A stretch of DNA of 64,000 nt from Macrostomum lignano (lineage: Eukaryota). Below, one piece after another: positions 22,129 through 60,391 of the stretch. A program made the position numbers and the translations under genes. Location of the stretch: the NCBI GenBank assembly GCA_002269645.1, contig NIVC01001052.1, positions 62,001-126,000 on the forward strand, read 5' to 3'. Within the stretch, counting starts at the first letter, position 1; each line of letters starts with the position of its first letter. The notes beneath the pieces were generated by a model. The model worked only from the letters and a program-made list of their open reading frames with translations. It was not told where the DNA came from and made no database searches.

Positions 22129-22768
22129 TCCACGCAATTCTTACACAGAAAATTGCTTTTCTTTCGATTTAGATTTAATTTAGGCTTCTTCGGCAGAAAG
22201 GCGAATAACGCATGACGTTTAACTAAAAAACAACTCTTTGAGCCTCCTATATCCCCAGGAGTGTAAGCTGCCTAACAACAAACAAGCCAGAAAAGCTTTG
22301 TTGTCGTATTATCGTTAGAAGCACTGCGATTTATATTATAATAGCTCAAAGTATAAGTACTAACCTACTAATTTTATTGTTTTTAATTTTGCGGATATTT
22401 AAAACAGAATATTGTGCAAAAAGTAAACTTATAGTACAGAAGTTATTTTAACCTCGCAGAATCTTACCTAGATTTTTGTCTGCCCAGTTAAATGTTTAAA
22501 AATACCTTTTATCAAGCGGCGCCTTACTGGTTTGCAAGTTAAATTGTGCCATATATTGCGTGCTACGAGCTAAACTTAGCATTAATAGCGAACTTCTTAT
22601 TTAAACAAAAACTGATTCTAAAAATAGAAACCAGCAAACGGCGAACTCGGAGAAGATGCTGGCAAAAATATTATAAAAGCATGTAGCCAGACAGGTAACT
22701 AACAGGTAAAGGTGGGACCTCTGCGATATACACTGAAAGTAAAGATATATCATTGTCAGCGCGCAAAT

Positions 22769-24259
22769 ATGAGATCGAGAAGCACTAGCTATATTTGTTG
22801 CCTGATATTTCTGTGCTGCTGCCTACTGTTTATAGTAGGATTACTTCTTGGTTAAACCTGTTGCTGCTGACTGACCAGCAAGATAGTGTTGACTCTGATT
22901 ATTTGAACCAATTCGCAAGGACGGCTACTCCTAGTCACAATGCCACAAGGTGAGAGACAGGTCTTCTTATTTATTATAACTTACCAACGCTTCATTTATT
23001 TTTCGACCAGATATACTGTCACAGACTTAGCTCAAAAATGACTCAAAGACCCATTTAACTTTCCAATTTTTATGAAGAATTCAAACTGAGTAAATAATCA
23101 TGACATTAAATATATAGTGTATGCGAGATGTATAGTAATGCTGAATTTAGCCCGTAGCACACAACATTTGGCAAAATTTAACTTGCAGGCCAGTATGGCG
23201 ACACTTTAAAAGTTTGGCGTTTTAGTAGGACCCATCAAGCGTGCCAAGTCGCGTGCTTTAAAGCAGAAAATACCTTGTTAACTATGCCAGTGGTCTAAAA
23301 GATGTAGTTGTCAACTATACTTTCAGTGTCCAGAAATGGAGAGGCAGACCACAGCAAGGCGGCAGCAGGTGCGCAATACCTCGCATGGAATCGAATCATA
23401 GCGCTGTAGAACGCCTAGTTTTCTGCCAGCTACTCGACCAGAAGAACCGCTTTGAGCCGTTTAATCGATCGAGACTAGTAAACATTACACAGGATCAAAA
23501 TGGCTCAACTAATTGCGACGCGTCTCACGGCAAGCAGCCTCTGTTAACGAATTGGTTCAACTCTAGCCAACTAGCCAAGCGTTGGATCAGCGTTGCGCAG
23601 TTTCTAGCCTTCATTGGAAACGACACATTCCAGGCGGATAAACGATTTAATCAAAGCTGGACAAATGGCAATCGGTTAGAGAGGCTGCGAATTTACACCA
23701 GATACTTGATGAGCACTCCAACTATGCAAAGCTTGCACTTAACACTGCTTAACAACGGACTAATACCAGCAAACCAGACCAGCATTGAAGCATTCTTCAA
23801 CGAGACAATGCACCCGTTGTGGTTTGAATTCTACGGCAGACGGAAAAAGCAGCAACGTCGAGGCTTCTACAATAGTTGCGGCTTTGAGCACGTGTTCGTT
23901 GGCGAACTGCGCGGCAAGAAGGTGATCGGCTTTCACAACTGGTTGCAGATGCTGTTACAAGAGGAATCAAACAGCCTGACCTACACGGGCAATCGGGAGT
24001 TCAGCAACAACCGGCCATTGTGGCTAGCGTCTGCTTCAACTGGTTCAATAGGAAAAAGGATTTCAGCACCATCATGCTAGGCGTGGAGCCAGAGTTTGAG
24101 CTGGCACTCTACACTGCAACGCATCTGCTCAAGGCTAATGGCGCTAGCAAGCTAACATTGGACGCATCAAGAAGGTGGAGACTAGAAGTGCAGAACTTCG
24201 AGAACGATTTCGCTCTCAATCACGTTCACGCAGCTTATCTGTACCGGTTAAAAGACTGA
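22769..24259 (+). CDS. ENDOU: EndoU/XendoU family poly(U)-specific endoribonuclease; as assembled, interrupted by two 1-nt deletions (assembly error or pseudogene)
   Basis: Exon 1 22769-22949 (hydrophobic N-terminus, shift near 22852), exon 2 23327-24259 (shift near 24016). Motifs FEHVFVGE, GFHNWLQ, FNWFNRKK, GVEPEFELALYT. The phase-2 intron is consistent after correcting the first shift. Confidence 0.85.
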
Positions 24260-35738: not shown

Positions 35739-38700
35739 TAAATGGTAATGTATATAATGTGATTTAAAGATTTCCATTTGCTAAATTTAACATTTAATAT
35801 ATTTTTATGAATCATGCATGATGGAACTAATATTAATAATAGAAATGGTAAAATACACTATCACAAAACTAATGTTTTAGCAAATTCAAAAAAGTATACA
35901 AAAGCAACAAAGTTAAAAGCAAAAAAGAGATAAAATTAACAAACAGATAGAATAGAGACAAGGGTGGCTAGACAGTTTCATTGTATATAGCATAATATCA
36001 AAGCCCAGAGGCTAGAGGCAGTCTTCCCAATATACTGAATACCATATATGGTCATTTTTTGAGGAGCCGCTACATTGTCACACTTTGCTATTTCTGAATT
36101 AAAATTGCACAGCTGCTTTACGCATGTCTCTACTTTAAAAAGACACATTAGACACACACAAAGATGCTTCAAAAGCTGAGATATTCCCAAGCAATGGTTG
36201 TTACGACATTTTCTAAATATACTGAATGCTATTTGATGTTGCTATTTGAATCATATAACCATTTTTTCAGAAACTGTGATCTTTCTGTGTGAAAATTGCA
36301 CTGCTGCTTTATGTATGCCTTGCTGTAAAAAGACACATTAAAGACCAAAAAGACACTTCACAAGCTGAGGTATTCTTTAGCCACTAATACCTCTGTGGAA
36401 GGGGCCTATACACTCGTAATTTATAAAGCTTAGAGAGTTCCAAAATTTTGATTTTATTTTCCAAAATTGAATTTTTAGAGAGCAAATTTCAATTTTTTAA
36501 AAAAATAGAAGTCAAAATTTTGAAGTGTCTAAAAAAGTCACTAAAAATAAACTAATTTCTGCTACATATACATGTAGCTCGTATTTTGTTTTGCATAAGC
36601 AGTAAATTGAAAGTAAAAAAGTGAGTGTTGGTCATACTAAACTTTGTTTTTCTGAATTTTGATTTCGACAAAACAGAACATCTCTAATAATCCTAAAGAG
36701 TGGTAAAATAGTTTGACTCTTTCCTAAAATGCACATTCGCAGGTTTTCAACATTTATTCCAATAGGGGTAACAACTGTTGCTAGGGAATATCTCAGCTTG
36801 TGGAGCATCTTTGTGTGTGTCTGATGTGTCTTTCTAAAGCAGAGACATGCATAAAAAAGTCAAAAAAATTACAGTATCTTGCATATTAAATAGACAATTT
36901 TGTTAAACATTTACTGAACAATTTCTGAATGTCTATCTGAATGTCTGTCGGGAAACCAATACATAAAGGTCATTTATTGTTGCAATACCATCCTAAATTT
37001 AGGATTGTGGGTATATACTTGAAATTCTTTGGCATGAATTTATAACTATTCCATTTTTGTTCAGGCATATACCCAGCATGATCTGGACTATGGCATTACA
37101 AGTATAGGCCAAGTTAGATACAACTTTAAAAACTTGCAATAGGCCTATTCTTATCAATCTTGTCAATTAAAACATACCATTCAATCATTAATTATATGCA
37201 TATAATGAAAAAATTATCTTTCATATCTTCTCTGCCACTGCTATTTTTTATTTTAGGAAATTGGTTGTCAAAAAATTACACAATCTCAAGATACTGCATT
37301 CTAAAAAAACTGGGGAAAAGTTGTGATTTAAACAAAGTAGGCCTAGTCAAAATTGCTATTGCCACTTGGTAATAGAAAGTTATTGATAGTTTAGAAGTTT
37401 AGATAGTCAAATATATAGAGAGCATTCGCCACCCACAGGCTATGGTCTATGATGTTTCACACCTGCTTCCTTTCTCCTAAGCAGGCATGGCTGGAGATCT
37501 CCATGCTGCACTACTAGCCAACCCAGGGATACACACCCCGTGGGTGTTCAAGGTGGACCCTAGGGCCACTGGACAAATTGGGCAACAGCGCCAGTCATTC
37601 TTCTGGGGCTTTGGCCTTGGCCAAGCCACTTAGGGTATGGGTTTTCCTAGTGCGCTTACCTGTGCACTATCAGGTGCCTCTGGCTATGGCTTTGAGGTAG
37701 AGGTGTTACTCTTTGACCTTACAGGGTATGCACCCAGTCTGCAGGTTTGTATACCTATGCGCTATCAGGTGCCTCTGGCTACAGCTTTGTGGTAGAGGTG
37801 TTGACCATACAGGGTATGCGGCCAGTCCACAGGCTTTTGCACAGCCAAAATTGCACTCCAAGCCTTCGGTGTCTGCCGCACCCATGGGCTCTTAGCTAGG
37901 AAGTAGTCCAGTCGTGAGCTTCTCTCTTTTCTTCATTAACCTTCATTGACCCCAGCTGCTTGGGATGTTGCCAAAGGCAGCTCCAACTCTGTCCTGCCCA
38001 GCCCAACTAGTGGGGACAAGACCAATACCACTGCTGGTGTCGCCGATAGTAAGTCAAATGCAAGGCGCAAGCAAAACTGCCATTGTGGCCATTCTGCTGA
38101 AGCAACCACAATGCAGGTAAAATTGAGCAGCAGCGACAAAAAGCTGCTGTAGACATGGTGGCATAGTTGGCTAATGGTGCTGAGTTGGAGGAGCCCTATG
38201 GTGAGGATGGGGCAGCGGTGGAGCCAAAAGACTGCCGCTGGCTCTGCCTCTTTCAAGGACATCTTAGCCCCCTAGCATGCTACCAATTAAGCTATACTAG
38301 CCAAGCCCTCGGGAACCGCCACATCTACCACCACCAAGACCAATACCAAGGAGAGCTATGCCTCCAAGGCTCAATGGGTTGCACTCCCACCAGCCACCAT
38401 CATTCTCAGTGAGGAGTGAAACCTTATGGCCACCAAGCTTGACATCGCCTGGCATACCATTGATGCTGAGCTCATTGACCTCACCATGGAGGGCATCTCA
38501 GTGGAGGTGGTCAAAGCAGCCAAGACTGGCAGCTACATTTTGCTCTGGTGCTCATTGGAAGAAAGCAGCCACTGGCTCCGCAAGCTACTTCCCTGCCACA
38601 AGTGGAAGAAGGAGCTCCCTAAACTATTTTTTGCCTTTGAAGGAGAAAGCAAAAGGACCCAACGCTTTTCTGTATTTGGATCCTAGCCATGAGCGCCATC

Positions 38701-40744: not shown

Positions 40745-41515
40745 TAGTGTTCTACCATAAGGAGGTACCATGTACCATAGCCATAGCCATAAGCAATACT
40801 ATGGCTTATTCCAATTCTCTGTATTCTATAGCCGTAGGGACCCCAATATTACCATATTCCCATAGTTCCCATAGCCATAGCTGTAGTCTTAACAAAAAGT
40901 CTAGAAAACAAAATATTTTGAATCAAGAAGATAACCTAGTGCTTAAAAAACTGCAAGTTAAGTTAGAAAATAAAAGAAACACTTGATTGCCTTTAAGATT
41001 ATATTTCGTCTTTTTTCAGAGCAACAATACTTAATTGTTACTGAAAGTACTAATGCTGAGCTTTTTCACATTAATAAAAATTAGAGTTTGCTAGTGTTTT
41101 ACTGTACTTTTTTATGTATTTTTAAAAGTTTCTAAGTTGATAATATAGTTTACTAAAAGTATATTTGTTTTTACTCTACCTGTTTCTAATATTTTTTTCA
41201 TTTTTTTAACATTAAAAACTATGGCTATGGCTATAGGAATCTACGGAATGTGACAACAACTACCATATTTCTATAGTTAGTTGTAGCCATAAGAGTAGCT
41301 AGCTACTGTAGGCATATCCATAGCTGCCATAGGCACCTATTTTATCATATTTGCCATAGAACCCCGTAGCCATAGCTACGGCTATGGCCATAGCTATAGC
41401 TATAGCTATAGCACAGTAAAACACAATATGGCACAGTGTTATTTTTTTTTACTGTGTTATAAAACACAGTAAAACACAATTTAGTAGCCATAGCTATGGC
41501 TATGGCAGAACACTA
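40745..41515 (+). mobile_element. hAT-type MITE, copy 1
   Basis: Termini TAGTGTTCT...AGAACACTA; perfect 8-bp TSD CCTGAGAA (40737-40744 / 41516-41523). Confidence 0.92.
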
Positions 41516-41663
41516 CCTGAGAATAACTCATAGCTCCTCTGGTTCTTTTGGGCAACTAGACGAGCCTCTTTCTTTCCAAACAAAGAGAATGCTGCAGGAC
41601 ATACTGGTGGACTACCCTGACTGGCCCTGTGCATTTGCCAAAGTGGGTCACTAGGGTTTAGCA

Positions 41664-42312
41664 TAGTGTTCCGCCGTAGCCATAGCCTATGGGATCCTAC
41701 AGCAAATATGGTAAAATAGATGCCTATGGCAGCTATGCCTATGGATATGCATACGGTAGCTAGCTGCTCTTATGGCTAGGACTACGAAAATATGGTAGTT
41801 GCTATCACATTCCGTAGATTGCCATAGCCGTAGTTATTAATGTTAAAAATTGAAAAAAGATTAGAAACAGGTAGAGTAAAACAAAGATACTTTTATTAAA
41901 CTGTATTATCAACCTAGAAACTTATAAAATATACCTAAAAAAGAACAATAAAACACAAGCAAACTCTAATTTTTATTAATGTGAAAAAGTTTAGTGTTTA
42001 AATACTTTCAATAATGATTAAGTATTGTTGCTCTGAAAAAAGATGAAATACGTTCGTATAATCTTACAAAGACAATTTAAGTGTTTCTTTTATTTTCTAA
42101 TTTAATTTGCAATTGTTTAAGCACAGGGTTATCTTCTTGATTCAAAATATTTTGTTTTTAAGACTTTTTGTTAAAACTATGGCTACGGCTATGGGAACTA
42201 TGGGAATATGATAATTTTGGGGTCCCTATGACTATGGAATATGGAGAATTGGAATAAGCCATAGTTTTGCTTACAGCTACGGTACATGGACCCTCCTTAT
42301 GGCAGAACACTA
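41664..42312 (-). mobile_element. hAT-type MITE, copy 2 (same family, opposite orientation)
   Basis: Termini TAGTGTTC...GAACACTA; 8-bp TSD GTTTAGCA/GTTTAGCG; body is the reverse complement of copy 1. Confidence 0.9.
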
Positions 42313-43398: not shown

Positions 43399-44467
43399 AT
43401 CACCCGTGGCTTTAATTATAGAACTGGCAGGTGCATACGTGCGCAAATGTATTAAATACAACGTAAAGTAAAGCCAGAAATACATGCAGCGCTACACCAC
43501 TGCATTCATTACTGGGCTGCAAGGCCGTGTTTTCCGAGGATAGAAATAGAATGGCCTCACGAGTGGGACACGGCCGCCCTGTTAATTCGTTCGTTCCAGC
43601 CGTTCGAATCGGTGCGCTTCGGCGTTTCAAACAAACTTAAACGAAAACCTCGGCTTGCAGATGACGGGGAGCTCCGCTGCTGAGTTCCTCAGGCTCAGGG
43701 GGAGGGTAGCTGTGGTCGCGGCTGAGCGGTCTAGTTTTGCCGACGTTCAGAAGGCCGAATGCAGAGATAAGGGAACTTCAAAATAAGCTGGATTTGTCGA
43801 GAGTCTTACTAATAGTAGTAGGTCGCTGCCACCACCGCGATTGTGCGCGGGAAAAGCTCTAAAGCTTATGAATAGCTTGAGTTCGCTCTAGCGCTTCTCA
43901 GTAGACCTCTAAGGGTCAAATAATGCTTCCGAGGTCACGAAGGCTAGACACCGTTTTCACACACAAATATTAACTTGGCCGGAGTAACTAAGTGGCCGGT
44001 TGAGCTGGATCTTATTATTGACGGTTATTAAGGCAATAGTTTCACGCACAGTAGCAATTGACTAAACTTAAATCTTAATCGTTAAACTGATGGGCGAGGC
44101 GATCGGAGCTGGTCGGGTCGGGATGCTGGGCTTACAGGTAGGGTCAGTAGTATTATACGATACAAAATTGCCAGCAAACCGTTCTCATAATTCAATCAAT
44201 TTAACCCTTTATAATCAGTGTGAAATGAATCATTTTCCCTTCACATCGCTCGTCTTCACTTCGCTCGTGTTCATTACCGCTCGACTTCACTCCGCTCAAC
44301 TCGCTCCGCCCATCCTCGCTTCATTTCGGTCAATTTCCCAATTTCACACTTCCAACACTTCCAACACTTCCAACACTTCCAACACTTCCAACACTTCCAA
44401 CACTAACAAACACTCTATAACCCCAGGCCGCGCCGCAGGCGCGAAGGGTCTTTTTCTGTTACTAAAA

Positions 44468-44971
44468 ATGAACCGAGTTTACACCTTTTCAGTTAGTGAT
44501 ACTTTTGAGACCGTTGCTAAAAATTCAGAGATTATAAAACAACATATTTTGAATGGAATAATTGATGAAGTTTATTTAAAATATGATGACAAAACAGAAC
44601 TAAAACTTTATCCGTTAGAGTTGGATGGTTTGTATGATCTAGAACAAGAGGATGAGTTAATATTTCAACTTGGCAGATTTTTAAATTCAGACGATTGGGA
44701 GGTTCGTTCAGAAGATTCCGACTCAACAAATAGTTCATACGAAACCAGTGATTCGAAGAACGAAATTGAAATTGAAATTGATAGGTTGGTTAGACGAATA
44801 AAAGTACTTAGGAAAAAAATAAAATATTGTTTAAGTTATCCTGCCGACAGTGAAGACAATTGGTGTTCTATAAAATTTGAAATTGAAAAGGTTATTATGC
44901 TTAAACAATTACATGCTTTAGTTTTTTATAAGTGCTATAGTTCATCAATATCGAACTCAAAACAATTATAG
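44468..44971 (+). CDS. Polinton left-arm ORF, 167 aa, acidic, unknown function
   Basis: The ATG lies at the inner end of the left TIR (ACTAAAAATG); open to 44971. The upstream part of track ORF 44090..44971 is TIR read-through. Confidence 0.65.
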   Translation: MNRVYTFSVSDTFETVAKNSEIIKQHILNGIIDEVYLKYDDKTELKLYPLELDGLYDLEQEDELIFQLGRFLNSDDWEVRSEDSDSTNSSYETSDSKNEIEIEIDRLVRRIKVLRKKIKYCLSYPADSEDNWCSIKFEIEKVIMLKQLHALVFYKCYSSSISNSKQL

Positions 44972-47900
44972 TCAACGTCAAATAGTAAACTGTTATAATA
45001 TTCAATTGAGTGTTCATGCTGTGGTTTGTCATCAAAATAGTTTTTAAAGAATGGTTTCATAACTCCGTTTTTATCCGGTTTTTCTCTTTTATATGTGTTT
45101 ATCGTAGAAGTATATGTTTTTGATATTGTTGAGCCGCTTTGGGGGATTGTTATACCACCTTCAAACGATCGTTTCCACGGAGCATTATTATTTACTTTTA
45201 TTGATTGTCCATCATATAAAGTTTTAAACGATGCAAAATTGACCTTATCATTTGCACATCCTTTAAATGTTTTTTTTTCTCTTCCATATAATAAAATCGT
45301 CTTTCAACAAAAGACAATATTTAATTTTAGGAGCGATAAAATATCCGAATATAATTCCACCCTCGCCATAATTGTTTTTCCTTGACTTAAATTATTTCCG
45401 ACATGCCCGTTTTTATTTAATGTGTCCCAATGTTTTTTATGTATATATAACGAATCGGTGTCGCCGTAATAAATTTATGGAGTCTTTGAGCCTCTATAGA
45501 CGTGATAAAATTATTCATGATCCTTCTTGAATGAGCTAAGATAAATATCCCTAATTGCGCCGGACAAAGGCCTGTTGTAGGATTATCGTCGTCATCTACA
45601 TATTCTTGTGTGTCTTTCTTTTTTTCAAAATAAAATAAGTCATCACATATTTTCTCATAAGACTTGATTGTGTCGTCGTATTCTTTTTTTAATGTTTGCA
45701 AATTCCAGAGATGAGTTGTGAAAGTATTGTCTCTTTGAACTGTTTTACCATATAAGGAATTTAACAATGTTTTTACCAATTCAGAACCCGCCTCATTATT
45801 TTCTTTTTTAAATACTTTTCTCATTTCAAAAAGGTTTGTAATATAATTCTGAAACGGAGAGAACTCGTAATTTTTTTCATATACAATTCCGCTGTATATC
45901 TTTAATATTTTTCCACCCATTCTTACAATTTCTTGTATGTCTACGGAACATAAGGTATCGATTACCTTTCCGTTTCTAAACCTATTTAATGTTTTTGTTT
46001 CATTTGCTTTTGTTTCCGGATTATAAAATTTCTCTTTATCTTTCGATGGGAGATGTTGAAGAAAAACGCTGGTGGGATTCTCATACATAATCTTTAAAAC
46101 CGCTGTTTTTGGTCGAAAGGTTTGTGAATTAAATTGTGTCAAAAAATCCTTTTCCTCACTTATATCAAAAACTCTGCCTGTTTCTGCTCTTGGATATTCA
46201 CTATCCTTATCAGACATGGCGGATGGGTACAATGAGACTCCATCAAAATTCATTAAGCAATCTGATACAGTACCCAATTGGTTTTTTAGTTTAATTGCGA
46301 TTTTCTTTTTTTCTTCCATGTCGCTTTTGAGATAAGTTGATATAACCTCACATGGCTCGCTTGTTGGTGTTTTTAAATGATCTTTTACGATGTCTACGAT
46401 TGTTTGAAAACAGTCGCTTTCGTATTTATTTATTAATGCAAATACTCTGCCTCCTTTGACTGCGTCCCGCATAAACCTTCTTATATAAGGATTGGTATGA
46501 GAGTGAACCGAAAATTCTTTTCTTAATAGTGTTTGGTATTTCGTTTTTTCAAGTTTGCTCAAGTCAAAATAATCTTCGATTTTCAACGGAGATATTATTT
46601 CTTTAACTTTTTAAATGTAATTACTTTTTCTTTTGTCTTTAGGTATTGTTTCATTTTGTCTTCAACTCTAACAAAATCTTTAAACCAACATTTTAATGTT
46701 AAACTCGAACATGTAAGAGTATCAAACATTGTCATTCCTCCAATTTCATATGCTATTTCATTATACTTATGAATACAGGCACATAAAGAAATAAGATCAA
46801 ATTGTAAATATTCATACCATTCATCCATGCGCTCTAGGTAGTCGTGTTCGGTAATGTCATGAACCATTGAGGTCTTGCGCAAATCCTCTCTAATTGTCAT
46901 TGACGAGCAAAACCTTTTTAAACTCATTGAGGCGTGTTGATATGAGCAAAGCATCGTAATGGTTTGTTTCGAATCCTTGTGATTCTTCTTCTTATCTTTG
47001 TTTATAAACGCCCTAACCGCTTTTGACGCGTAATCGTTTACAAAAGTGATTGATAATATTTCTCTTGGGGTTTTAAGAATTTTAATTGGTTTTATATTAC
47101 AAAATAGTGGTATGTACGAATCGAAGCGGGATGAGTTGTGTGCGATCAAAACAATCTTTTTTGACCTAACTGTACCAAGGTGTTTAAACATTTTTCTAAC
47201 ACAGTCAACCTTAGCTCCGTCTGTTTGAAAATCACAACCGCGATGTGATATCAAGATCTTAGTTAGTTTCTTTATTGTCTCTGGGCTTCCGTTACAATTA
47301 TTAGAAAAGTCGTTATAGTTTAAAAGACCAACTGCATACGGGCATGCCTTGTTGATTATAATTTAAATATGTTTCAAAATCAAATATGTATACATTTGAT
47401 TTATTGGGATTTGTGGATGTGTTGAACATTTTTAGCTCTTTAACATTTTCAGACGTTGGGTTTTTAAATACTACTTTATAATTGTCTTTTATCCGATCGA
47501 GGGCGATTCCTCTTTGTTTATTGGATATAAGGCAATAATGACCAATGTGATAATCGGCTGTGTGATAGTAATTTAATAGCCAGTCGTGGTGAATCCCTCT
47601 TTGAGACTTCGGTTCAATTCCACGATTATTAGGATTATACAACCCTATGTTCAGATTAAAATATTCATTGAATTTTCCAATTCTTGAATTTGTCATTAAA
47701 CCTCTTTGGGTTCTTGAGTCGTACAACCAAGCACAATATTCGTCTTTGGATGGGGCTTTATCACCATAAATAAATTGAACACACTTGTAGAAACAATTTC
47801 CATCACTAGGTATGTAACAGTACTCGTCTTGATATTCACTAATTTCACACATGACGTTTGTGCCCATACCCTGCTTTGACCTTTCGTGTTTAAGTGTAAT

Positions 47901-48537
47901 TTCATTTGGTGTCATTTTAAGTCTTCCGGAAATCACACTAAATTCATGTCGTAGTTTTCTACCAAATGTTTAAACCAAGCTTGAAACTGACTTATATTAT
48001 AAAATGTTGCTAGGTATTGATTAATCTCTTCGCGATCATCTCCGGTTTTGTTATAAAAATATTGTACTCTTGCGTTTGTAATTTCAACACTATATCCGTT
48101 TGAAAGTTGGGTTTCAATAAAATCTAGGACGTTCTGCATTGGTTCAAATCGATAAACCCTAATAAACTCTTCTAGTGGTTTTTCATCCGATTTATTCCGC
48201 GGTTTCCGACGTATTGGTTTGGTTTGGTAGGGTCCTTTTGGTTTTTTTCTAATTCTGCTATTCTTTTTTCATATTCAGCCTTTTCTATTAAACGCTTCAT
48301 TTCATATTCTGCCCTTATATTATTTGCTAATTCTTTTATTTGCTGATCTTCTATTTGTTTTTCTCTTTGTCTTTGTCTTTCTCTTTCTCTCGCTCTCTGT
48401 CTTTCTCTTGCTCTCTGTCTTTCTCTTTGTCTTTGGCGCTGTTCAATTTGTTCAACCTGTCTTTGTAATCGATTGAACTGTTCGCGCTCATTTGCAAGAA
48501 GTTGTCGAATCTGATCTGGGGTCAGTCTTTGTTCCAT
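44935..48537 (-). CDS. polB: Protein-primed family B DNA polymerase (pPolB) with N-terminal coiled-coil/terminal-protein-like region and vOTU domain; split by about 7 frameshifts as assembled
   Basis: vOTU IPSDGNCFYKC...GHYCL; ExoI FDFETY; ExoII AHNSSRFD; ExoIII YLQFD; KGGRV; PolA FDGVSLYPSAM; PolB KTLLNSLYGK; PolC YYGDTDS (45471-45451, shifted frame); KKTFKG; WKRSF; stop at 44935. Confidence 0.92.
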
Positions 48538-48569
48538 TTTATAGAATAAAATTTATATAATATTTATTC

Positions 48570-49551
48570 GAGATCCGCTTTCGGTAACAGTAGTCCGCTG
48601 CCCATAACGTTTGCATTTAAGAAGATTCCTGAACCTGCTTTTGGTCGCATTTCGAGATATAATCCACTTCCGTCGTGTTTTTCAATTACGTTAAAATCTT
48701 TTTCCAATTTATTAAAAATCTTCTGAACGGCTGGCCTAAAATTAGCTCCAATATTGTCAAAAAATCCTTTAGCTTTCTCACCCGTTTTTTCTAAAGTTTG
48801 CCCAAACTCATGTAGTTTATCTGCGACAACTCCGCTTCCTTGGGTTGTTCCTTTTAAAATTAAACCGTCGCCGTGATTTGTACCTTTTAAATTAAACCTT
48901 TTCCGGCTGCTAATTTAGCTTCTGCATTTTCTTTTTTGTTCTGCTGTTGCTGAGCTACTATTAATTGTATCTATAAGTTTTTGTTTGAATTGTGCGTCCT
49001 GCGTTATTTGCTGTCTTTGAAATTCAGCATCTCTTTAAGCTTTTTCATCCGCTGCTTTTTTGTCATTTACTGCCTTTGTGATTCCGGCGCTCCTCCCGCT
49101 ATTCCACCGGCTGCTCCTATTCCTGCAAAAATTATTGGGAGCAAAGTTGCGAGGGGTAATATACCCCCTTCTTTTGCTTTTAATTCAGCTAATTTTTTCT
49201 GTTATCGTGAATTCTTTTGGCTGCTAATCCGGTTGCTCCGGCTGCTCCGAGACCCAAAAGTATTGGTAAAATGGGTAGCAACCCGCCGTCCTTTTTAGTG
49301 TGAGTCTCCAATAAAAATTTCACATCGGAGTCTGTTAGCCTATAGTTTCTACCGTGATTCTTAAAGGATATTGGCCTTCCTTCTTTTGCATATTTTGAAG
49401 CAAGTTTAAATGTATCGATATCATAGTCAAGTTTTTTGCCTAAGCGATACAATCTTTTTAACATTGCGTGACTATGTTTGTTATCGTCTAGATTTAAAGT
49501 ATCTACAATTTCTCCTATAAAATATAGCCGATCGTTATTAACTGAGTCCAT
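48570..49551 (-). CDS. Polinton core/cement-like precursor with two adenovirus pX-like GG-cleavage/hydrophobic motifs and repeated GxGL/I motifs (frameshifted, one in-frame stop)
   Basis: KKDGG-LLPILPILLGLGAAG and, after a 1-nt shift, KAKEGG-ILPLATLLPIIFAGIGAAGG; downstream GKGLI, GDGLIL, GSGLYL, GSGIFL, GSGLLL. Confidence 0.65.
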
Positions 49552-49561
49552 TTTTATATTG

Positions 49562-49972
49562 TTAAAATTTCTTTAATCCTTTTCCGCCTTTAATTGTGGC
49601 TAACATTTTATTAAAATCCTGAATATCTGTATTACTTATTGGTGTGCTTTTCGTGGGGGTTTCTGTTGGTTGTGCGGCTTGAGTTGCTTCCTGCGCTAGT
49701 TTCAAATCTTTTATTGCTTTTATTTGTGAGAGGGTGTCGTTAAATTCTCTCAATTTCTTTAGTTCTTCTGCTGCCCTAGCTGCTTCGATTCCGCCCTTTA
49801 CAGCGTTTGTTATAGATCCTGCTGCAGAGCCTGCTTGGCCTATAAGACCCATATTATCTTTAACGAAATTTGCTGCTGTTCCAACCACATCAAAAAGACC
49901 CTCACCTCGGTATTCAACTGGGACTCCTATTTGAAATTCATTCAGATTTTGTATATGTGTAACGTGTGTCAT
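49562..49972 (-). CDS. Polinton small structural-like protein, 136 aa
   Basis: Intact ORF starting just inside the right TIR; GEGLFDVVGTAANFVK amphipathic segment; VKGG and IKGG-KGLKKF resemble adenain-type cleavage sites. Confidence 0.65.
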   Translation of the reverse strand: MTHVTHIQNLNEFQIGVPVEYRGEGLFDVVGTAANFVKDNMGLIGQAGSAAGSITNAVKGGIEAARAAEELKKLREFNDTLSQIKAIKDLKLAQEATQAAQPTETPTKSTPISNTDIQDFNKMLATIKGGKGLKKF

Positions 49973-50935
49973 TTTTGTCTATTTTTAGTAACAGAAAAAG
50001 ACCCTTCGCGCCTGCGGCGCGGCCTGGGGTTATAGAGTGTTTGTTAGTGTTGGAAGTGTTCGAAGTGTTGGAAGTGTTGGAAGTGTTGGAAGTGTTGTAA
50101 GTGTGAAATTGGGAAATTGACAGAAATGAAGCGAGGATGGGCGGAGCGAGTTGAGCGGAGTGAAGACGAGCGGTAATGAACACGAGCGAAGTGAAGACGA
50201 GCGATGTGAAGGGAAAATGAGTCATTTGACACTGATAAAGGGTTAAATTGATTGAATTATGAGAACGGTTTGCTGGCAATTTTGTATCGTATATACTACT
50301 AGGGTCCCCTCGAATATCTGGAGCTCGGAGTTCGGGACGGGTGAAATTCAAATGAGAAGGGGGGTTCCAGTCGAGAGTCTGGCTGGAAAGGAGGGGCGCA
50401 GACTCTTAAACGTGCTCTTTGAGCCACCGGGAGGAAAAAGGGCTTACCCCGGGTGGGACAGGAGAGACACCAGGTGGGGAGAGAGGAGGGTACACCGGGT
50501 GGTGACGAATAAACACCGGGTGGACCCTAGGGAAAAACACGGGATGTTTGTAAAACAAAACATTACGGGAGGTGGGAAGGGAAATTTACATTAGGCGAAA
50601 AGCGGATTCCTCACAGGGAATGACGTCAAAAAAATGCGCAATTCACTGGGTGAGCAAATCCACTCGGCGGAAACAAAGTTTCGTTCGGTGGGAGCAGTGG
50701 GAGGCCGCGCCTACCACAAAAGGCCTGTCTAATAGCCGTTTTCTGTTTTCCAGGAACTTTTTAAGTTTAAGATAGAAATAACAAAAAATAATCTACAAAT
50801 ACTTTGTCCGTCTTTACATACTAAAACCATACTTTAGTTTAAGCAATAAACCAAACCAGTATCATTATAACTTATGTTGCATAAACATAAGCATAAACAT
50901 TATAACTAGTATGCATAAAACATTAGCCTTATTGA

Positions 50936-51773
50936 GAAATGAAGGCCAACACCAACATATAAGAAATTATTATAATAGCCAACGCGTTTCGACACAAACG
51001 CAAACTCCCATTCCTTGGAGTCCCGTCCCTGAGTCTGGAAAAGAAGCTTAAAAGAACTTTCTTGAAGTATTTCAACTCTCGGGTCATGGTTGTGTTTCAG
51101 ACCGCCAAAATTGGCCAGTTTGTTAGCAAGTTGAAGTCGAAGGCCCCTAGAGCTCTGTCTGCTGGTGTCATCTATCAATTTTGTTGCTCTGGTGATCAGA
51201 GCATTTCCTACATCGGAAAAACCAAAAGGCACCTGTACACTAGGGCTAGGGAGCATAGAATGAATAACTCTGCTGTGCATGATCACTTGCTTAGTTGCAA
51301 TGCCGAGCATGAGCCGACTGAGCTTTTCACTGTTTTGGATAGATGTAGATTTGATGGCAAGCTCAGAGTGCTGGAAGCCTTGCACATTAAGCATCATAGA
51401 CCTAGTTTGAATACTCAGCTTGCAGGTGGAGGAGCCAGTTTACAGCTCAAGGTTTTCTAGGCTTTGGTGTGGGTTTGAGGCTCTCTCCCCGCCAATATTG
51501 TTTGCTCTGTGGTTGCGTTTTCTGTGTGATGGCCAAATAATTTATTATAGTTTCGTCTCTTAATGTACAATTATCGACCGGACTGAACCCATTTGTCTAT
51601 TGCCATGTACAGTTTTTGATTTTCTCTATTTAAGTATACTGAACTGTGAATCATGAGTGCAAGCCCTGAAGATGACCGCTTGTGTCGAAACGCGTTGGCT
51701 ATTATAATAATTTCTTATATGTTGGTGTTGGCCTTCATTTCTCTATTATTTATTAAACGAGCATCGCTACCAG
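50936..51773 (+). mobile_element. 5'-truncated Penelope-like element with inverted 5' segment
   Basis: GIY-YIG endonuclease C-terminus (ORF 51062..51460: GVIYQFCC..SYIGKTKRHL..R..EH..LEALHI..RPSLN); 63-bp inverted repeat 50935-50997 / 51680-51742; flanking direct repeat ATTAGCCTTATTGA (50922-50935 / 51774-51787). Confidence 0.88.
51662..51700 (+). ncRNA. Minimal type I hammerhead ribozyme in the PLE pseudo-LTR
   Basis: Stem I AGCC/GGCU, core CUGAAGA, stem II GAC/GUC with 7-nt loop, GAAA, palindromic ACGCGU stem III; predicted cleavage after GUU at 51696. Confidence 0.75.
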
Positions 51774-51949
51774 ATTAGCCTTATTGATTCTGGCAACAAG
51801 ACAAGACATTTCTGTATAATGGAATACCGCCCTAGCTCTTAGCAGTGTAGCAAACCTGGGGACCTTGTTCTCGTTCGATTAGCTCTAGTAACTTTAACTG
51901 GATACTAGTACTGTGCTTCCAATTTTGATGAACAACAATAGCAGCAACA

Positions 51950-52760
51950 ACAACAAGGGTGCGTCAGATGGTGCACGCCGCAGAGCCTGGGAGCTCCGCG
52001 CCAAACAAAGTCCCCCCGTTAGCAGTGTCGGGCGCCCCAGCGTCGCACAAGAGGCAGTCCACGTATCGACGAGTTTGGGCCTGACCCCACTAGAACAGGC
52101 CCACTTGTAGAACTCCTGATGAAGTGTCGAACAGGTCAAACAGGCCGACCGCCGTCACCACAGCAGCTCGAGAGTGTCGCAATACAGTGCCATGACAGCA
52201 TCAATTAGCTGCTGGGGTACCCGGTAGGCTCGAAGGACAAAGGGAAGCGCGGCTCTCAGCACCGAGTCAAATGCATTTCGAAAGTCAACGAAGAAAATGA
52301 TCGGCGTAGACTGCATGGCGGATGCGCGCCTCCTCGATGACACGGCAGAATGCGAGGATCTGAGGCACTGTACTGGGGCCAAAATCCGTTCTGCTCGTAC
52401 CGCAGGTCCAGCACCGACTGCAGACGATCGAGCAGCAGCCTGTTGAAGAGATTCGCGGTGCAGGACATCAGCGAGATCCCGCAGTGGTCTTCTTTCCGCT
52501 TTGTCCCTGCCTTCTTTGGGGTCGGCACGAGATGCGCGACGGTCAACTCGGTGGGCGCGGGGCGCCGGCGAGCACGGCGGCTCATGACGCCTGTGACCTG
52601 GGAGGCCACATAGCGGAGCCGCATCGTCGCGACCGGGACTTCGCCGGGGCCGAGCGCCTTGCCACCTGATGTTTTTCGAGCGAACAGCACAACGTCCACC
52701 GTGGTGACTGATGGGCGCAGAAGTCCTCCTCAGCTGGGAGCGGCGTGTCCAGTGGAAGCG
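51950..52760 (-). pseudogene. Degenerate non-LTR reverse transcriptase fragment (RTE/CR1-like)
   Basis: VPTPKK..CGISLMS..NLFNRLLLDRL..QNGF and FVDFRNAFDSV..LRAYRVP in shifted frames. Confidence 0.82.
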
Positions 52761-54158
52761 CAAAGCTGGCGGGCAGCGGCGACGCGGGCGCGTTTACGAT
52801 GCCGGCGAAGAAGTCGCGCAGTTTATTCTTGCGCTTCTCCGGGGTGTCGCCGGCCAGGTTCAGTGCCGGCGCCGGAACCAGATTCAGTAGTTCATGTACA
52901 TGTATGCATGCATGTACATGTACACTATAATAACATGTACGTTGTTACGTTTGACTGTCAGATAATTCGCAATGCGTCGCTTCTACGTGGATATTATTTT
53001 TTACGCCACTATTGCCGTATCGTTTATCAATTAAAACGACTTTTATAGATTTTTTGCTTGAAACTCATACTGTACAAACTATAGAATAGTAGCTACTTGA
53101 GCATGATATTTCATGAGATGACAAATTAGCTACGGCATAATGATGATGAATTAGAACCGTTTCAATTCACACATGACGTACATGTACCATGTCGACATGG
53201 AATACGCAGGATGCACAGACATGCAATTTCCGATGGTTGGAAAAATTAGCAATATACTAATCGAAAGCTGAAGTTGCTTGTATAATTGTAATTAAAGCAT
53301 GTTTTCAAGCATGTTGATAAGGATTAGTGCAGGAGAGAGATGGACTGGAATATATGTACAACACGCTTTCATTTCACATTATAAGCTAAAACAATACCAA
53401 AGGGATTACATAATCAGATGAGCGAGAGATCGGCTCTGTTATTGGCCGTAATGTCACATTAAAGTTGATTAACAAGAACAGTTTGTAATTAAATTGTATT
53501 TAACTAAGCATTGGATTATACTTCAGTAATTAGCTAAATAAAAAATATCCGGAATTTGATTTATAACAAATCAAACAAAACAGCCGGATCGATTAAAACA
53601 ACTTGAGCAAGTTATAGAAAAATCAAATACTTTTTTATCAGTTCTGAAATTCATTTGTAAAAAAGTCCTGCTGCAGTAATCCTTGAAGGAAGCGTGCCCA
53701 TGATTTACATCTAGTACGTATTCAGTCGTATGTAAATTATAAGCAGAATAAATATAACTTGAGGGAATTTACTACAATAAAAGTTAACTGGCAACAGTAT
53801 CCATCTACTGCTTTCCAGGGCAGCCTCCGTGACTGTTTTATCGATCCATCGATCGCAGCCCTTAAAATTTTTAAAGGATAAAGCACAGAAGCACCTCAAA
53901 AGTACAAGTTATGAGTCAATTTTTAAGCGACTGTTCAGCTACCCAACAAATTATCGCTTTTGATCCCCTTCAGGACCCACATATATTGTCTATTGGATAA
54001 ACTGACGCGCATATACAAGGCTGGAAAACTGAATTTAATTTTTGTGAGCTATCCCATCCCTGATATCTAAGAGAGTCGATCAATTTCAATCATGGTTCAA
54101 TTCCCAATGCTAACACATGCGCTAGAAAACACACAGCCCGCGATAAACAGCAGGCTAG

Positions 54159-57100
54159 TTAATGTTGATCAAGACGAGCATCAATCTTGGGCATCAGCAT
54201 AAGATTGAGATTGGTTTCGCCAAAGAATGTTCTCACGGAGCTCGCATCCGTCATAGCAAAAATGCGCAGGGCGTCCCCGGCGCGCAACTCGATCCAGTCC
54301 ACAATCCGACAGCTGTTTGTCCGCTGAGCGTCGCAGCTCAGCACAGTGTCTCGGCTGTTCAAGCGAATTTCGAATGACACATTACCGGACAATCGAGCCT
54401 TGAGCAGGTAGACACCTGTAACTCGGACGATCAAGGAATCGTTCACGACTCGGAAAGTGTCAGACAAGTTGCTACAGTTTTGCGCTGGTATTTGCTCTGA
54501 CAAACGGACGAGCGCCAGTGGATTGAAGCAAGTTAGCGGGCCAATTGCGCTTAAAGCTGCGGGGATCGAGTAAATAACGCTTGGCCCATTAATACTCCAG
54601 AAGTACAAATAAACTAGCACCAGCACCAGGGGTGCCAGCACACCAAAGTGACATATATTCAGGCGCATAGAGACAAAAAACACTTGTTAAAATGGTAAAA
54701 TTCTCTTACCATCTGGTCTGATTTCATCGTCACCCACTACTCCGACGCTTATCTACAATATTTAAGGTTGCAATCAATGGAGACATTTTGCATGCGTAAC
54801 ATGTCATGTTAATACATTATTTAACTACATATAGCGTAGAGGTATATGTGCTCAACAAAAGGTATTTTTAGCTACAACTGAAAATCGATGAAGCGTTAAA
54901 TAAATAGAACATATAACTTAGACCTACATGTATGATTGACATGTATGGGCTACGGTATTCGATACCCATATAGAAAGTTCCTGGGTTGGATTCCTACATA
55001 ATGCTCTACTCCAGGGCTCGGAAAACTGAGGCCCGCGGGCCACCGGCCTTCGGATCCTTTGAAACTTCGCAATAGCAATCCGGCCCACTCAAGGTTTGTG
55101 TCTCTTCTCATGCAGTTCTTTCTCTTTTTCTCGCTCTTCTCTCTCCCCTCTCCTCTCTCCCCGTCTCTCCCCTTCATCTCTTCTCATCTCTCTCCTCTCT
55201 CCCCTCTCCTCTTTCCCCGCCTCTTCTCTCTCTCTCCTCTTCTCTCCCCTCCCTGCCTTCCCTACTCTCCCATTTTCTCTCATCTCACCTCTGATCTTTT
55301 ATCCTTTCTAGTTTCCTTTCTAGTTTCCTTTCCATAGACTGCAGCCATAAGCTGTATTTTCTACTGGTTTTTGAGGTAATATGTTTGCTGACCCCTGCTC
55401 AACTCAAAAAGAGAGCCAGGGCTGGCCGATAGACAGCCTGTGTACTTAATCTGATACAATTAGCAGCGATATAATTAACCAAAGCCAATTAGCAACAACT
55501 TACCCTTGGCAGCAACCGTGTTCTGGGCGCCGCAGTTTCCACAGCCTTCTTGATTTCGCACGGTTTCTTCAAGCGACTGCCGCAGGCCCCGCAGGTGCAG
55601 GCAATGCTGGCAATCAGTATGCAAAACGCAATCACCGAACACATCTTTGGATTAGCTAACTAAAAGAATTTGTCCTATTAGACACTAATTGCTAACAGTT
55701 GGCTTGATTGTGAGTTGTTAAATTTGGCGGCTTCATCTCTCAATTCCATCAACTTTTATACAAATTTGAGCCTGTCAGCAAAGGCACCAACTTGTCTATT
55801 TTTATCCCGGCAAAAACCAAAATTAATCAAATTGCACCATAAGATACGCCAGATTCGAAAATTCAAGGAACATTTGTACGCTAAGGTTTTGTTTACATTT
55901 TCATGTAGACATGCGAAATAAGCGAAATTTGTGCGCCAGTGCCTCCTTGTCCGCCCACTGCATCAATGTAAAAATGCGATAGAAAACCTCATTACGGAGT
56001 AACTTCGTTCCTATTTTTAACTTCACGAAGTTTTCAAACATGAAAACTACATGTATTCAATTATAGTGGTAATTTTTAGTATCTGGACTAGCAATTTGCG
56101 CAACCCCCCGTTCGGGGAGGCAACACAGAAACGAAAAAAAATAGACGAGTAATTTGCATAAAATTCACATCGGTTTTGACCTTGTACAGTCATTAGTATT
56201 AATTCTTACGGAAATTAATGATGTTTAAAACTAAAAAACATATTCACACTGAAAGTCATTAAATATAGCCTCAGCCATCAGCATCCACTATATTAGCTTT
56301 AACTCAAAGCATCTGAGCAGCCCCATGAGCCACAGAATTTCAGCATCTCCCTCATGAGTTTCGACATATCAGCAATTCCGCCATAAGCCTTGACATCTCA
56401 GCAATTCCCCATGAGCCTTGACATCTCAGCAATTATCATTGACGTCTTAGAGATTCCCGGTCATGAGTTTTGAAATCAAGCTTCTTTGATGAGCTGAGTA
56501 TACATCTTGTAAGGGATGCAATTTCAGCTAGAGAACTCAATGGTTGAGAAGAAAAATGTTTGCCAATGCCTCAAAGATTGCACATTTTATCCAATTCCTA
56601 CTAGGATCTGGAAATCTATGAAAAAAAATTGAAAAAAAGCTATATTTCTTGACGAATGTGTTCCGCGGTCCTGACTTAGTCCGAGACAAAGCAGGGCGTT
56701 ACTTTATAAAATTTCAGTTTAGTAAAAGTCTGATTGCTTGTAGAGCATGGTAGAAATTTTTTACCTCGACTGGGTAAAGAATGCAGGTCATGGCTGAGGC
56801 CCGGATAGGAGAGGAAAGGAGAGGAAAGATAGAAGAGAGAAAAGTTAAGATAAGAGAGAAGGGGAGAGAAGATAAAAGAGAAAAAAGGAGAGAGAAGAAA
56901 GAAGGGGTAGAAGAGAGAAGAAGGGAGAGAGGAGAGGGAAGAGAAGAGGGGTGAGAAGAGAGGGGAGAGAAGAGAGGAGAGAAGAGAGAAAGGAGAGAGG
57001 GGGAGAGAAAAGAAGGGAGAGAAGAGGGGAGAGAGGAGAGGAGAGAGAAGAGGGGAGAGAGGAGAGGGGACAGAAAAAGGGTGAGAGGAGAAGGGGGAGA

Positions 57101-57645
57101 AGGGAGAGAAGAGAGGGGAGAGAAGAGGGGAGAGAGGCGAGGAAAGAGGAGAGGGGAGAGAAGAGGGAAGAGTAGAGAAGGAAGAGAGGAGCGAATATAG
57201 AAGGGAACTGTGTTTTTTCGACATTTAAATTGACAAGCTCGTAAATCAAATCTATGCCAATTTCAATGCATGAGCCTTTTCGTGGAAATTCAGAGGCTGT
57301 CGATAAATTGTCGACTTAAATCTGAATAAATTCCAGTGTCCCAAATGCAATTTTGCAGCAAAATTAGACTTCAGGCCGCCGTAATCTCCGATCGTCAAGT
57401 TCTCAAACCCGCAATTCGGTTTTCTCTCTCAGTCACTGAGCCTGACCACCTGCCAACGAGTGTTTCTCTCCAGGCAGTCGATGGACAGACTTGTGCCTGC
57501 GTAGAGTGTCCGTTGCCACGGCGAATGCGCTCAACAGATCGCCACGTCTTGTAGGCGCAGCAGTTGACTGCCGAGGCTGCAGCTCTTTCGATCTGTTGCT
57601 GGTACGTGCAACCGACAGCTCAGCCGCAGCTATTGCGCGGCGCAT
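54159..57645 (-). CDS. TNF-superfamily-like type II membrane ligand (spliced model)
   Basis: Phase-consistent exons 57645-57450, 55655-55504 (TM: MCSVIAFCILIASIACTCG), 54752-54710, 54556-54159. C-terminal domain with DSLIVRVTGVYLL, ELRAGDALRI and TFFG motifs typical of the TNF homology domain. The 5' end may extend to an exon near 58602-58396. Confidence 0.65.
55012..55397 (+). mobile_element. hAT (Charlie-like) MITE carrying a CT-rich internal tract
   Basis: Termini CAGGGCTCGGAAAAC / GTTTGCTGACCCCTG; GGCCCGCGGGCC subterminal motif; 8-bp TSD CTCTACTC/CTCAACTC. Confidence 0.8.
56808..57205. repeat. GA-rich low-complexity tract
   Basis: Purine-only composition; preceded by TTTTACCTC...TCATGGCTG as in the 2471 MITE. 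Confidence 0.9.
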
Positions 57646-57680
57646 CTGAAGGCTGCGTGCGGCTGTTCAGTCCAAGGACT

Positions 57681-57868
57681 GGGGGTCGCCACACACACCC
57701 TCAATTACCCCAGCTAATGCTGGCACCCATTTTACAGCTGGGTGAACTGAACTGGGCAATGCAGAGTTGAGTGTCTTCCTCAAGGACACAAATTGGTCCA
57801 TTGGGATCAGGAATCGAACCTTCGACCTTCAAGTCGTGAGTCCGACGCTCTAACCACTAGGCTACAGC
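57681..57868 (-). mobile_element. tRNA-derived CORE/Meta-like SINE (same family as 31690-31869)
   Basis: Minus strand GCTGTAGCCTAGTGGTTAGAGCGTCGGACTCACGACTTGAAGGTCGAAGGTTCGATTCC...GTGTCCTTGAGGAAGACACTCAAC...CCAGCTGTAAAATGGG. Confidence 0.87.
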
Positions 57869-58989
57869 AGTTGTAACAGCATTGATAATTTGTTAGAACG
57901 TTGGAACTGACAAAAAAGGCTGTTGCATACCGACTCTCAAACCCATAAAGACTGTAACGTTCATGTTCAATCGCAAAGGCTAAAGGCCAAAGCCGAGACC
58001 AAGTATTTATTCATAACTAGAATCTTGAGACCCAGAGCCTTGACATAGAACTTTGAGCCAGTAAACTTAAGACACTGAACTACACTGTAAACGTATTGTT
58101 GTCCCCGGAGAACAGTTCTCGTGGTCATAGTCCTCAAATGAAGCATTTTGATGAATTTTAGCAAAGATAATAGAGAAGAGTGAACTGCGATGACTCAACA
58201 GTACTTTTTGGTTAATCCCAGATCGATGTATAGTTCATAAATATATATTTAAACAAAAGTTTTAAAATCAGTCTATTTTTAGGCTTTCTATATATGTCAG
58301 GCAGAACCAAGCAGAAAGCCAGAAGAAACTGCTGAAGAATTGGTTCCATAATTGTAACTACAGACAGCTAAATATAGACTGAAGTTCAGCTTAACCTTGT
58401 CTGATAGGTCAGTTGGCGATGAAGAACTAGTAGTATTTTTAGCGACGGATTGGCTAGCCAAGAGACAGAATGCTACCTGGAGTGCATCGACTGCGAGAAC
58501 CGGCGCACTAATCAAGGAAATTTCGATCTCTTGCAATTCTGCTGAATTGTTGCAGTCACTGCATTTTCCTCTATCAGGCACCAAATACATGTACTGCGAC
58601 ATTGTCAGTTGTTGAATATTTGCTTGCGGAACTTATAGCATATAGGGTTGGGAAAATATTGGTTAACAGTCTCGGATGTAGATAGCTATTTAATCCCCAC
58701 TTTGGCCCGGCCAGCTGCCTATCTCCTCTGTGTATTTTCATTTCTTGGACTCCAAGAAATAATTGTCTATGGCTAAAAACACTCTTTCAAATGAGTTGAG
58801 ACTCCCATCAGGCGTTTCTTGGAGGCCAAGAAATAATTGTCTATGGTAGAAACACAAAGATGCTGTTATAATTTTGAAACAAGACCGGTTTCACAAAACT
58901 GAATAGCAACAAATGGGGATCGAAAGTGAAAAATCTAACAACGAACAGTTATAAGCAGTCTTGTATCAGAGAGCGTCAGAGGGAGTCAG

Positions 58990-60391
58990 CGAAGGAGGGA
59001 GGATGAAACTAATCAAAGTGGAACACCACTCTGTTCCTGTCTCCAAAAGCCTCTATGCGCATTTTCTTCGTAGGAGCCTGCACCTCCAGAGGAGGCAAGG
59101 GCACTTGCACCTGCGCCGCAGTCACCCGAGACTCACTCACCGGTTGGCCGGTTGAGGAACCACTCAACAGTGCACTCGTGCGTTTCTCCATGGTCACCGA
59201 GGTACCGATGTACTTCTCCACTGCACTGGAGCTGTGGCCAGTCACACGGCAGATATCCGCCCGTTCCAACCAGCCTCGCGGAGGCGGGTTGTGCAACTCT
59301 TACGGAGACTCTGATTCGAGTAGCGTCCAGTGTCAGAGGGAGCAACCACGGCCACGGCGTCCTTGACGACGGTTGCCAATGAATGACGTCCAATCGGTGC
59401 CCTTGTCAACCAGGCAGATCCAGGCTGGCCATTCCAGTTTCGATTCCATCCCAGAAACAGCGCCTCGTTGCACTCATTAGGACGCACAGAGACGTACTGC
59501 TTGTAGACCCACAATGCATTTTTGGTGATTCTCAGTGTGGAAAGTACGAACGACTTTGGGGTCCCTTCGTAGTCCTTGTAAGCCGCCCTGATGAGTTTTG
59601 GTCACGGCATTGTCCACTACTTCAGACACTCTTCATCGTCAACTGTCTCAAGCTTGATTTGGCGATCGAACAGCAGATCTCGTAACTCCTGGCCACCACG
59701 CAATGCAAAATGTTTGCCAACGAGCCAAACAAGCGTGATCACCAGCATCTTGGGTTCCTTCACTCCAAGCACACCTTCGATCCAAAGCTTCTCTTCAATA
59801 GACTCGGGGATCACATCTGCCTTCCGCAATCCTGCACCCTTTCCAGCCTTGGTCGAGATTTTCATGGCGGCATCTAGAGCACGTTTACTGTCGGCGAACT
59901 CTTTGTCAAGCCAGAAGCTCCAATTCTTCTTAAACGTGTTTTGCCAGTGATACTGTAGCATTGAAAACAGATCCTTCAGCGTCGGCGCAGAGTAGCGCTC
60001 ACCATCTTTGTTCCGGGCCTCCATAACAAAAAAATTCAGCAGGTAATTCAGGTCACATTTGCTAGCATCCTCCAGCTCAGCGAGAACCATAAGTGACGGG
60101 CCTTCACCCATTTGCCCAGGCACGCTTCTTCTCGTCATCCCACTCGCGGAAGACGGAAAAGGCCCACTGCGCCTTTTTCTTGGTGGTCTTCGGCACGGTC
60201 TCTTCAATGTGTCTGGCAATTTCATTCTCCGAAAGTTGCTCAAACCGGCCAGTGAGAGCGGCTTCAATAGGTCCAGCGTTATCCCCGGGCTTCAGGATGA
60301 AATCCAGTAGGTCCGGCGAAATCTCCATATGCGGGGCTTCAACAACGACAGCAGCAGAGATGTCACCCATGTTCGGTACCAAGCTACACAC
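58990..60391 (-). mobile_element. Crypton-type tyrosine recombinase (DUF3504-like) coding region, frameshifted
   Basis: RFEQLSENEI..VPKTTKKKAQWAFSVFREW; FVMEARNKDGERY; LDAAMK; EEKLWIEGVLG; FALRGGQELR; KTHQGGL; YSNQSLR; VTGHSS..VEKY across four frames; intronless. Confidence 0.85.

Follow-up and report, generated by a model that had tools for sequence, protein, structure and literature searches.

The 64,000-nucleotide stretch of Macrostomum lignano DNA analyzed here (the window; positions 62,001 to 126,000 of contig NIVC01001052.1) contains one Polinton/Maverick insertion from which about 10.8 kb has been lost internally; its polymerase gene, pPolB, is very probably a genuine pseudogene decaying without selection. 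This reading is based on the classes of lesions in pPolB, its two nonsense codons, the neutral pattern of its private changes, a contig from a public sequencing run (X1), the broken pX-like gene next to it, a second version of the insertion that is broken differently, and the loss of the integrase and virion genes.

The pPolB gene is housed in a 6,155-bp element (44146–50300; Table 1). Polintons/Mavericks are characterized by long TIRs beginning with AG and by a 6-bp TSD; the element has arms of ~325 bp starting with AGTAGT, a 6-bp TSD, and a PF03175 polymerase, broken here, and the integrase and packaging ATPase expected at the family level are found in a full-length relative, the integrase profile (rve) scoring below its cut-off. 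The 2 arms of the element are 6 substitutions and 2 indels apart over ~325 bp, compared to 0 substitutions in 170 bases between the arms of an open-frame copy, a divergence that we count toward decay. Both arms of a 17,071-bp full-length relative align colinearly with the element, and comparison with this natural copy places the missing ~10.8 kb, comprising the protease-, ATPase-, capsid-, and integrase-type genes, at a single junction. Genes that would speak for autonomy (integrase, ATPase, and the putative protease and capsid genes) are absent inside the element, all of them belonging to the deleted 10.8 kb. In the full-length relative, Pfam searches matched Pox_A32 (E = 5.1e-7) and, at 32.2 bits against a cut-off of 32.6, rve (E = 1.3e-7), and ORFs of 490 aa and 146 aa occupy the places expected for the capsid and protease genes, with no matching Pfam family. 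Judging by size, position, and motifs, these ORFs may encode a double jelly-roll major capsid protein and an adenain-like protease, respectively.

Table 1. Features of the internally deleted Polinton/Maverick element, in window coordinates.
Feature	Position	Strand	Basis
TSD, left copy, 6 bp	44140..44145	.	Identical hexamer at 50301-50306
TIR 1, ~325 bp, starts AGTAGT, contains a 9-bp tandem array	44146..44470	+	Arm-versus-arm comparison
Fused open frame, 167 aa: last gene of the family plus end of the gene following pPolB	44468..44971	+	Comparison with full-length copy
Deletion junction, 10-base overlap (microhomology)	44764..44773	.	Comparison with the 17,071-bp natural copy
pPolB, very probable pseudogene: coiled coil, TP-like domain, vOTU, ExoI-III, PolA-C; interrupted by 7 frame breaks and 2 nonsense codons	44935..48537	-	PF03175; open-copy comparison
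Adenovirus pX-like (mu core protein-like) gene, frameshifted	48564..49551	-	Adeno_PX PF05829, E 3.4e-5, below its cut-off
First gene, with an open frame of 136 aa	49562..49972	-	ORF list; comparison with full-length copy
TIR 2	49976..50300	-	Arm-versus-arm comparison
TSD, right copy, 6 bp	50301..50306	.	Matches hexamer at 44140-44145

At the junction, 2 genes are joined in frame through a short repeat present in both, and this in-frame fusion is likely due to chance. The pX-like gene encodes 328 aa in an open copy and forms a single frame in the version of the insertion on contig C3225; in the window it is in pieces. Its product (L011:925-1911; 48564-49551 in the window) has 2 hydrophobic stretches of the Adeno_PX type, along with several Gly-X-Gly-Leu repeats, which presumably resemble adenain cleavage sites. 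A Pfam search with the open copy's version of the first gene returned no family.

The element belongs to a young Polinton family with open-frame members under purifying selection. A search of the 764-Mb genome with the largest pPolB piece of the window yielded at least 73 matches among the 102 candidates scored, at least 5 of which lie in stop-to-stop frames of 1,201 to 1,211 aa. When 13 polymerase-bearing stretches, taken mostly from the top of the match list, were compared, 5 were found to contain an ATG-to-stop pPolB frame of 1,196 to 1,206 aa, and since the left flank differs in each, these 5 copies represent independent insertions. Full-length relatives in this genome measure ~17 to 19 kb. 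The 6-bp TSD is also present at the C56 and C734 copies; comparison of the hexamers flanking the C506 copy revealed no matching TSD. The closest named protein, likewise from Macrostomum lignano, is 98% identical, and the next matches reach at most 44% identity. In the openly accessible literature searched on Macrostomum and Polintons/Mavericks, we found no description of this family; it may be undescribed, or it could be catalogued in Repbase, subscription papers, or supplements. Three further TIR-bounded copies, 3 to 11 kb in length, were noted on C393 (L042), C1040 (L043), and C3209 (L044-L045), with 3 different internal deletion breakpoints, all distinct from the junction in the window. Full-length relatives also have a variable cargo slot before the integrase, where unlike genes are carried (L012:5369-5932 versus L014:5337-5822): one is a Cys-rich ORF without a Pfam match, containing a stretch that we assume to be HNH-like, and the other is an unrelated ORF of 161 to 168 aa.

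An earlier note on this DNA had reconstructed pPolB as one polyprotein of about 1,200 aa with the coiled-coil/TP-vOTU-Exo-Pol layout of the Polinton lineage and intact catalytic motifs, and this layout was borne out. The gene, on the minus strand (48537-44935), is colinear with the natural single-frame copies, and all 8 motifs compared (the Cys and His of the vOTU, ExoI-III, and PolA-C) read identically in the window and an open copy, with the vOTU Cys codon near 47795 and the His codon near 47540. PF03175 matched the largest window piece with an E-value of 1.8e-16 and an open copy with 1.7e-18. The layout is supported by the natural open copies, by the conserved motifs, and by a structure model; the open copies show it directly, so that the window copy need not be mended to read it. 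The domain order is real and already published (10.1101/2024.03.18.585575; PMC8502044), not new: the former source reports, for polintons, a TP-vOTU-EXO-PALM order in which the Cys and His are active and offers vOTU cleavage releasing the terminal protein as a hypothesis, and the latter defines the PolB of Alpha adintoviruses by OTU plus pfam03175.

Conservation and structure add detail to this layout. In an alignment of 37 proteins (the query plus 36 of 74 matches, picked for covering the vOTU region), 36 retain the vOTU Cys, and of the 28 with a residue at the His position, 23 have His; the Peptidase_C65 profile matched the vOTU region weakly (E = 0.007–0.014). Residues 108 to 370 of a natural open copy were modeled with a mean pLDDT of 84.6, and the model comprises a confident four-strand, two-helix domain (beta-alpha-beta-beta-alpha-beta; residues 108–200) followed by a second domain, for which the best fold match, with a middling score, is the OTU domain of OTUD2 (Z = 5.0, rmsd 3.9, 111 aligned residues). 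The TP-like domain, for which a PRD1-like LF/PAD fold would be expected, matched the little-finger domains of Y-family polymerases weakly, with Z of about 3 and a rank below unrelated entries. A Foldseek search of the model against the PDB gave nothing at an E-value of 0.001 or better, and sequence searches of the PDB gave no relevant match; in a viral structure library, an adintovirus protein was the one match at 4e-4, with bidnavirus-like and mavirus polymerases in weaker positions beneath it. The N-terminal coiled coil of ~100 aa is rich in Arg, Gln, and Glu and is absent or partial in the aligned relatives from outside the host.

Aligning the window pPolB against 3 natural open-frame copies revealed 7 frame-breaking indels, near 48230, 47940, 47350, 46630, 45490, 45380, and 45290. 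The earlier note had placed its breaks near these positions, but described all of them as single-base shifts, whereas 2 of the 7 are multi-base insertions, 1 is a single-base gain, and 4 are single-base losses. The first break, near 48230, is an insertion longer than ten bases, and the frame from the pPolB start codon ends after 121 aa, so that this break alone abolishes the polyprotein. Nor could 5 of the breaks be put down to the loss of a single base from an A/T homopolymer, as had been supposed, given that only 2 of the 4 single-base losses fall in A runs. Such runs account for no more than 12% of the gene. Furthermore, the frame of the open copies contains 2 stop codons in the window, near 46610 and 45480, contrary to the contention that no nonsense codon is needed. 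Beyond these breaks, the gene has an in-frame deletion, private to the window, near 47575, and its stop codon is affected by an indel. Each nonsense codon is located within about 20 bases of a frameshift (46610-46630; 45480-45490), and since they adjoin frameshifts, the stops are avoidable only by moving the shift, at a cost of about 5 to 6 residues found in no compared copy. This closeness, which does not favor the decay reading, may stem from clustered mutation, a local consensus error, or bias in the way the finding was selected. By-eye threading of frame breaks may thus mask both nonsense codons and multi-base insertions, and siblings from the same genome resolve the matter.

The substitutions specific to the window copy follow a neutral pattern. 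Across the 2,778 sites in gap-free codons where the 3 comparison copies agree, the private changes of the window comprise 3 synonymous, 13 missense, and 2 nonsense substitutions (pN/pS 1.00; 1.2 nonsense changes expected under neutrality), versus synonymous:missense ratios on the ancestral branches of 22:6 (pN/pS 0.06) and 35:16 (pN/pS 0.11), and the window and ancestral spectra differ (Fisher p = 5.5e-5). A functional polymerase in the window copy is not supported, the gene having neither a single open frame nor a mark of purifying selection. Together with the non-homopolymer spectrum of the breaks and the 2 stops, the neutral private changes speak against the earlier proposal that the damage is confined to indels, resembles long-read consensus error, and may leave the polymerase functional. 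As sequencing errors would also produce a pN/pS near 1, further tests were needed, and these came from a second version of the insertion and from contigs of public runs.

About 10 kb of the right flank of the window is common to C3225 (99.1%) and C893 (98.5%), and C4519 and C1053 match parts of the left flank, indicating that these 4 contigs carry versions of one insertion. The C3225 version has the same deletion as the window element. Its private changes number 3 synonymous, 17 missense, and 2 nonsense (pN/pS 1.31), and it has frameshifts of its own in addition to one break that the window shares; the 2 versions are dead differently and to a similar degree, which argues for divergence rather than one bad contig. 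Three versions of the insertion would fit the 3 subgenomes that PMC10733133 reports for Macrostomum lignano, with a paralog SNP rate of 1.1% to 2.2%. Foreign sequence interrupts other versions near window position 44625-44630, and their parts lie on separate contigs (C3225/L025 near 5850; C4519/L027 and C1053/L028 near 670-700), and their flanks tie these interrupted versions to the insertion site in the window. The difference between versions amounts to 1.0% to 1.3% in the element (44630-50300) and 0.2% to 0.4% in the right flank (50301-60150), and the left-flank matches range from 88% to 99%. C3225 and C893 show 0 substitutions in 4,948 bases inside the element; because both contigs may have been assembled from the same reads, this identity was excluded as a calibration of error. 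Mosaic haplotypes, conversion, or assembly collapse could underlie the uneven divergence; the excess in the element over the right flank counts against the preferred reading. Within 12 to 30 kb of the other versions (C3225 L025/L035-L037; C4519 L027/L040), more Polinton termini and a second pPolB were observed: Polinton copies cluster or nest.

We considered whether the 6.2-kb unit, with its termini, pX-like gene, pPolB, and fused end gene, might be the fossil of a self-replicating, polymerase-only Polinton from this young flatworm family with its several open-frame insertions, that is, a defective or satellite genome or a split-Polinton segment that was integrated in trans by the integrase of a helper and died later. 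This origin appears improbable. The deletion is indeed common to both versions of the insertion, and it leaves both termini and pPolB, with a clean TSD, but the junction occurs in only 2 of the 40 places scored (out of 298 candidates), and both belong to the same insertion, so that no independent target site with this junction was found among those 40. Likewise, the 6 closest TIR matches are all at the site in the window, as far as the flanks show, and the 3 other short copies have 3 other breakpoints, as random deletion would give. The fused frame at the junction has stayed open, but given the density of lesions, chance alone would be likely to leave 500 bases open. The branch leading to both versions was under purifying selection (the 22:6 branch), and the deletion is older than the split between them, which makes a single helper-integrated polymerase-only unit compatible with the data; nothing requires it. 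A propagated non-autonomous subfamily, hinted at by the shared junction in C3225, was rejected, as the flanks of the 2 places with this junction, among the 40 scored, show the same insertion site.

Far less probable still is that the breaks are long-read consensus errors and that the window copy encodes a working polymerase of 1,200 aa. The 8 intact motifs would agree with this, but with only 18 private substitutions such intactness is expected by chance, and the 2 single-base losses in A runs, a small part of the gene, are accompanied by multi-base insertions and nonsense codons. The second version of the insertion, moreover, is broken at other places. Contigs from 4 of the 24 public runs were compared with the breaks (contigs only, with 32 of 1,102 and 16 of 423 pieces listed). 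A 79-nt contig from run X1, at a depth of 7.4 versus tens to hundreds for the other contigs listed, shows no difference from 48185-48263 and spans the whole first insertion, extending 36 and 29 letters beyond it, one side falling just under the 31-letter rule. The first break, which lies upstream of the polymerase motifs, is thus matched exactly, and this part of the earlier list of breaks is confirmed by an independent contig; the other 6 breaks, as well as both stops, have no exact contig among the pieces listed, which could be taken in favor of consensus error. Among the same pieces, the break near 47350 has low-depth ungapped cover in X1 and sibling-type contigs in X2, only sibling-type contigs occur in X4 and X6 at 2 breaks, and 45852-45953 has no exact cover in X1 or X2. 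As multi-copy siblings dominate, contigs are filtered, and few pieces were listed, the uncovered breaks are uninformative and weigh little either way. Single-base errors may nevertheless exist in the assembly: C929 carries 3 single-base losses in the gene that are missing from C56, which represents the same insertion. Accordingly, assembly errors may account for a few single-base breaks of the window as well, but this would not rescue the gene.

The pPolB segment of bidnavirids is about 6 kb in length, and the window element likewise is TIR-bounded, about 6 kb long, and carries a pPolB with TP- and vOTU-like domains; a bidnavirus-like segment was rejected, given that the element keeps the vOTU Cys and His, has a TSD, and is colinear with both arms of the 17-kb Polinton. 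The bidnavirid vOTU is described as inactivated (10.1101/2024.03.18.585575). The window element shares an OTU-bearing PF03175 polymerase, TIRs, a 6-bp TSD, and a pX-like gene with Polintons/Mavericks (the Alpha-class adintoviruses of PMC8502044), but differs from them in its length of 6.2 kb, in lacking integrase, ATPase, protease-like, and capsid-like genes, and in its broken pPolB and pX-like genes. Its polymerase resembles the polinton TP-vOTU-EXO-PALM pPolB (10.1101/2024.03.18.585575) in domain order, catalytic Cys and His, and the beta-alpha-beta-beta-alpha-beta domain preceding the vOTU, and is distinguished from it by the extra N-terminal coiled coil and, in the window copy, by the broken frame. 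Deleted and decayed Maverick copies keeping only the polymerase or the integrase region are described for Mayetiola and other animals (PMC8504770); the window copy is similarly deleted and decayed, but unlike those fragments it keeps the TSD and its 2 termini, and the genome still holds open-frame relatives.

Under the preferred reading of a deleted, decaying Polinton, the element would have been inserted by a Polinton integrase, and the deletion would have arisen through microhomology-mediated joining before the duplicated chromosome versions diverged, each version then presumably gathering separate lesions. In intact members of the family, according to a published hypothesis, the polyprotein of 1,200 aa would prime replication at the termini through its terminal-protein domain, which the vOTU protease may free. 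The window copy itself is of little weight, being deleted and dead and belonging to a known kind of element whose polymerase layout is already published; the open-frame family, residing in a laboratory-model flatworm, is a possible system in which to test the hypothetical release of the terminal protein by the vOTU. Elsewhere, the window is rich in minisatellites and contains 4 other inverted-repeat pairs (40781-42282, 36117-36855, 22509-23211, and 50931-51746), which are probably small foldback or MITE-like elements.
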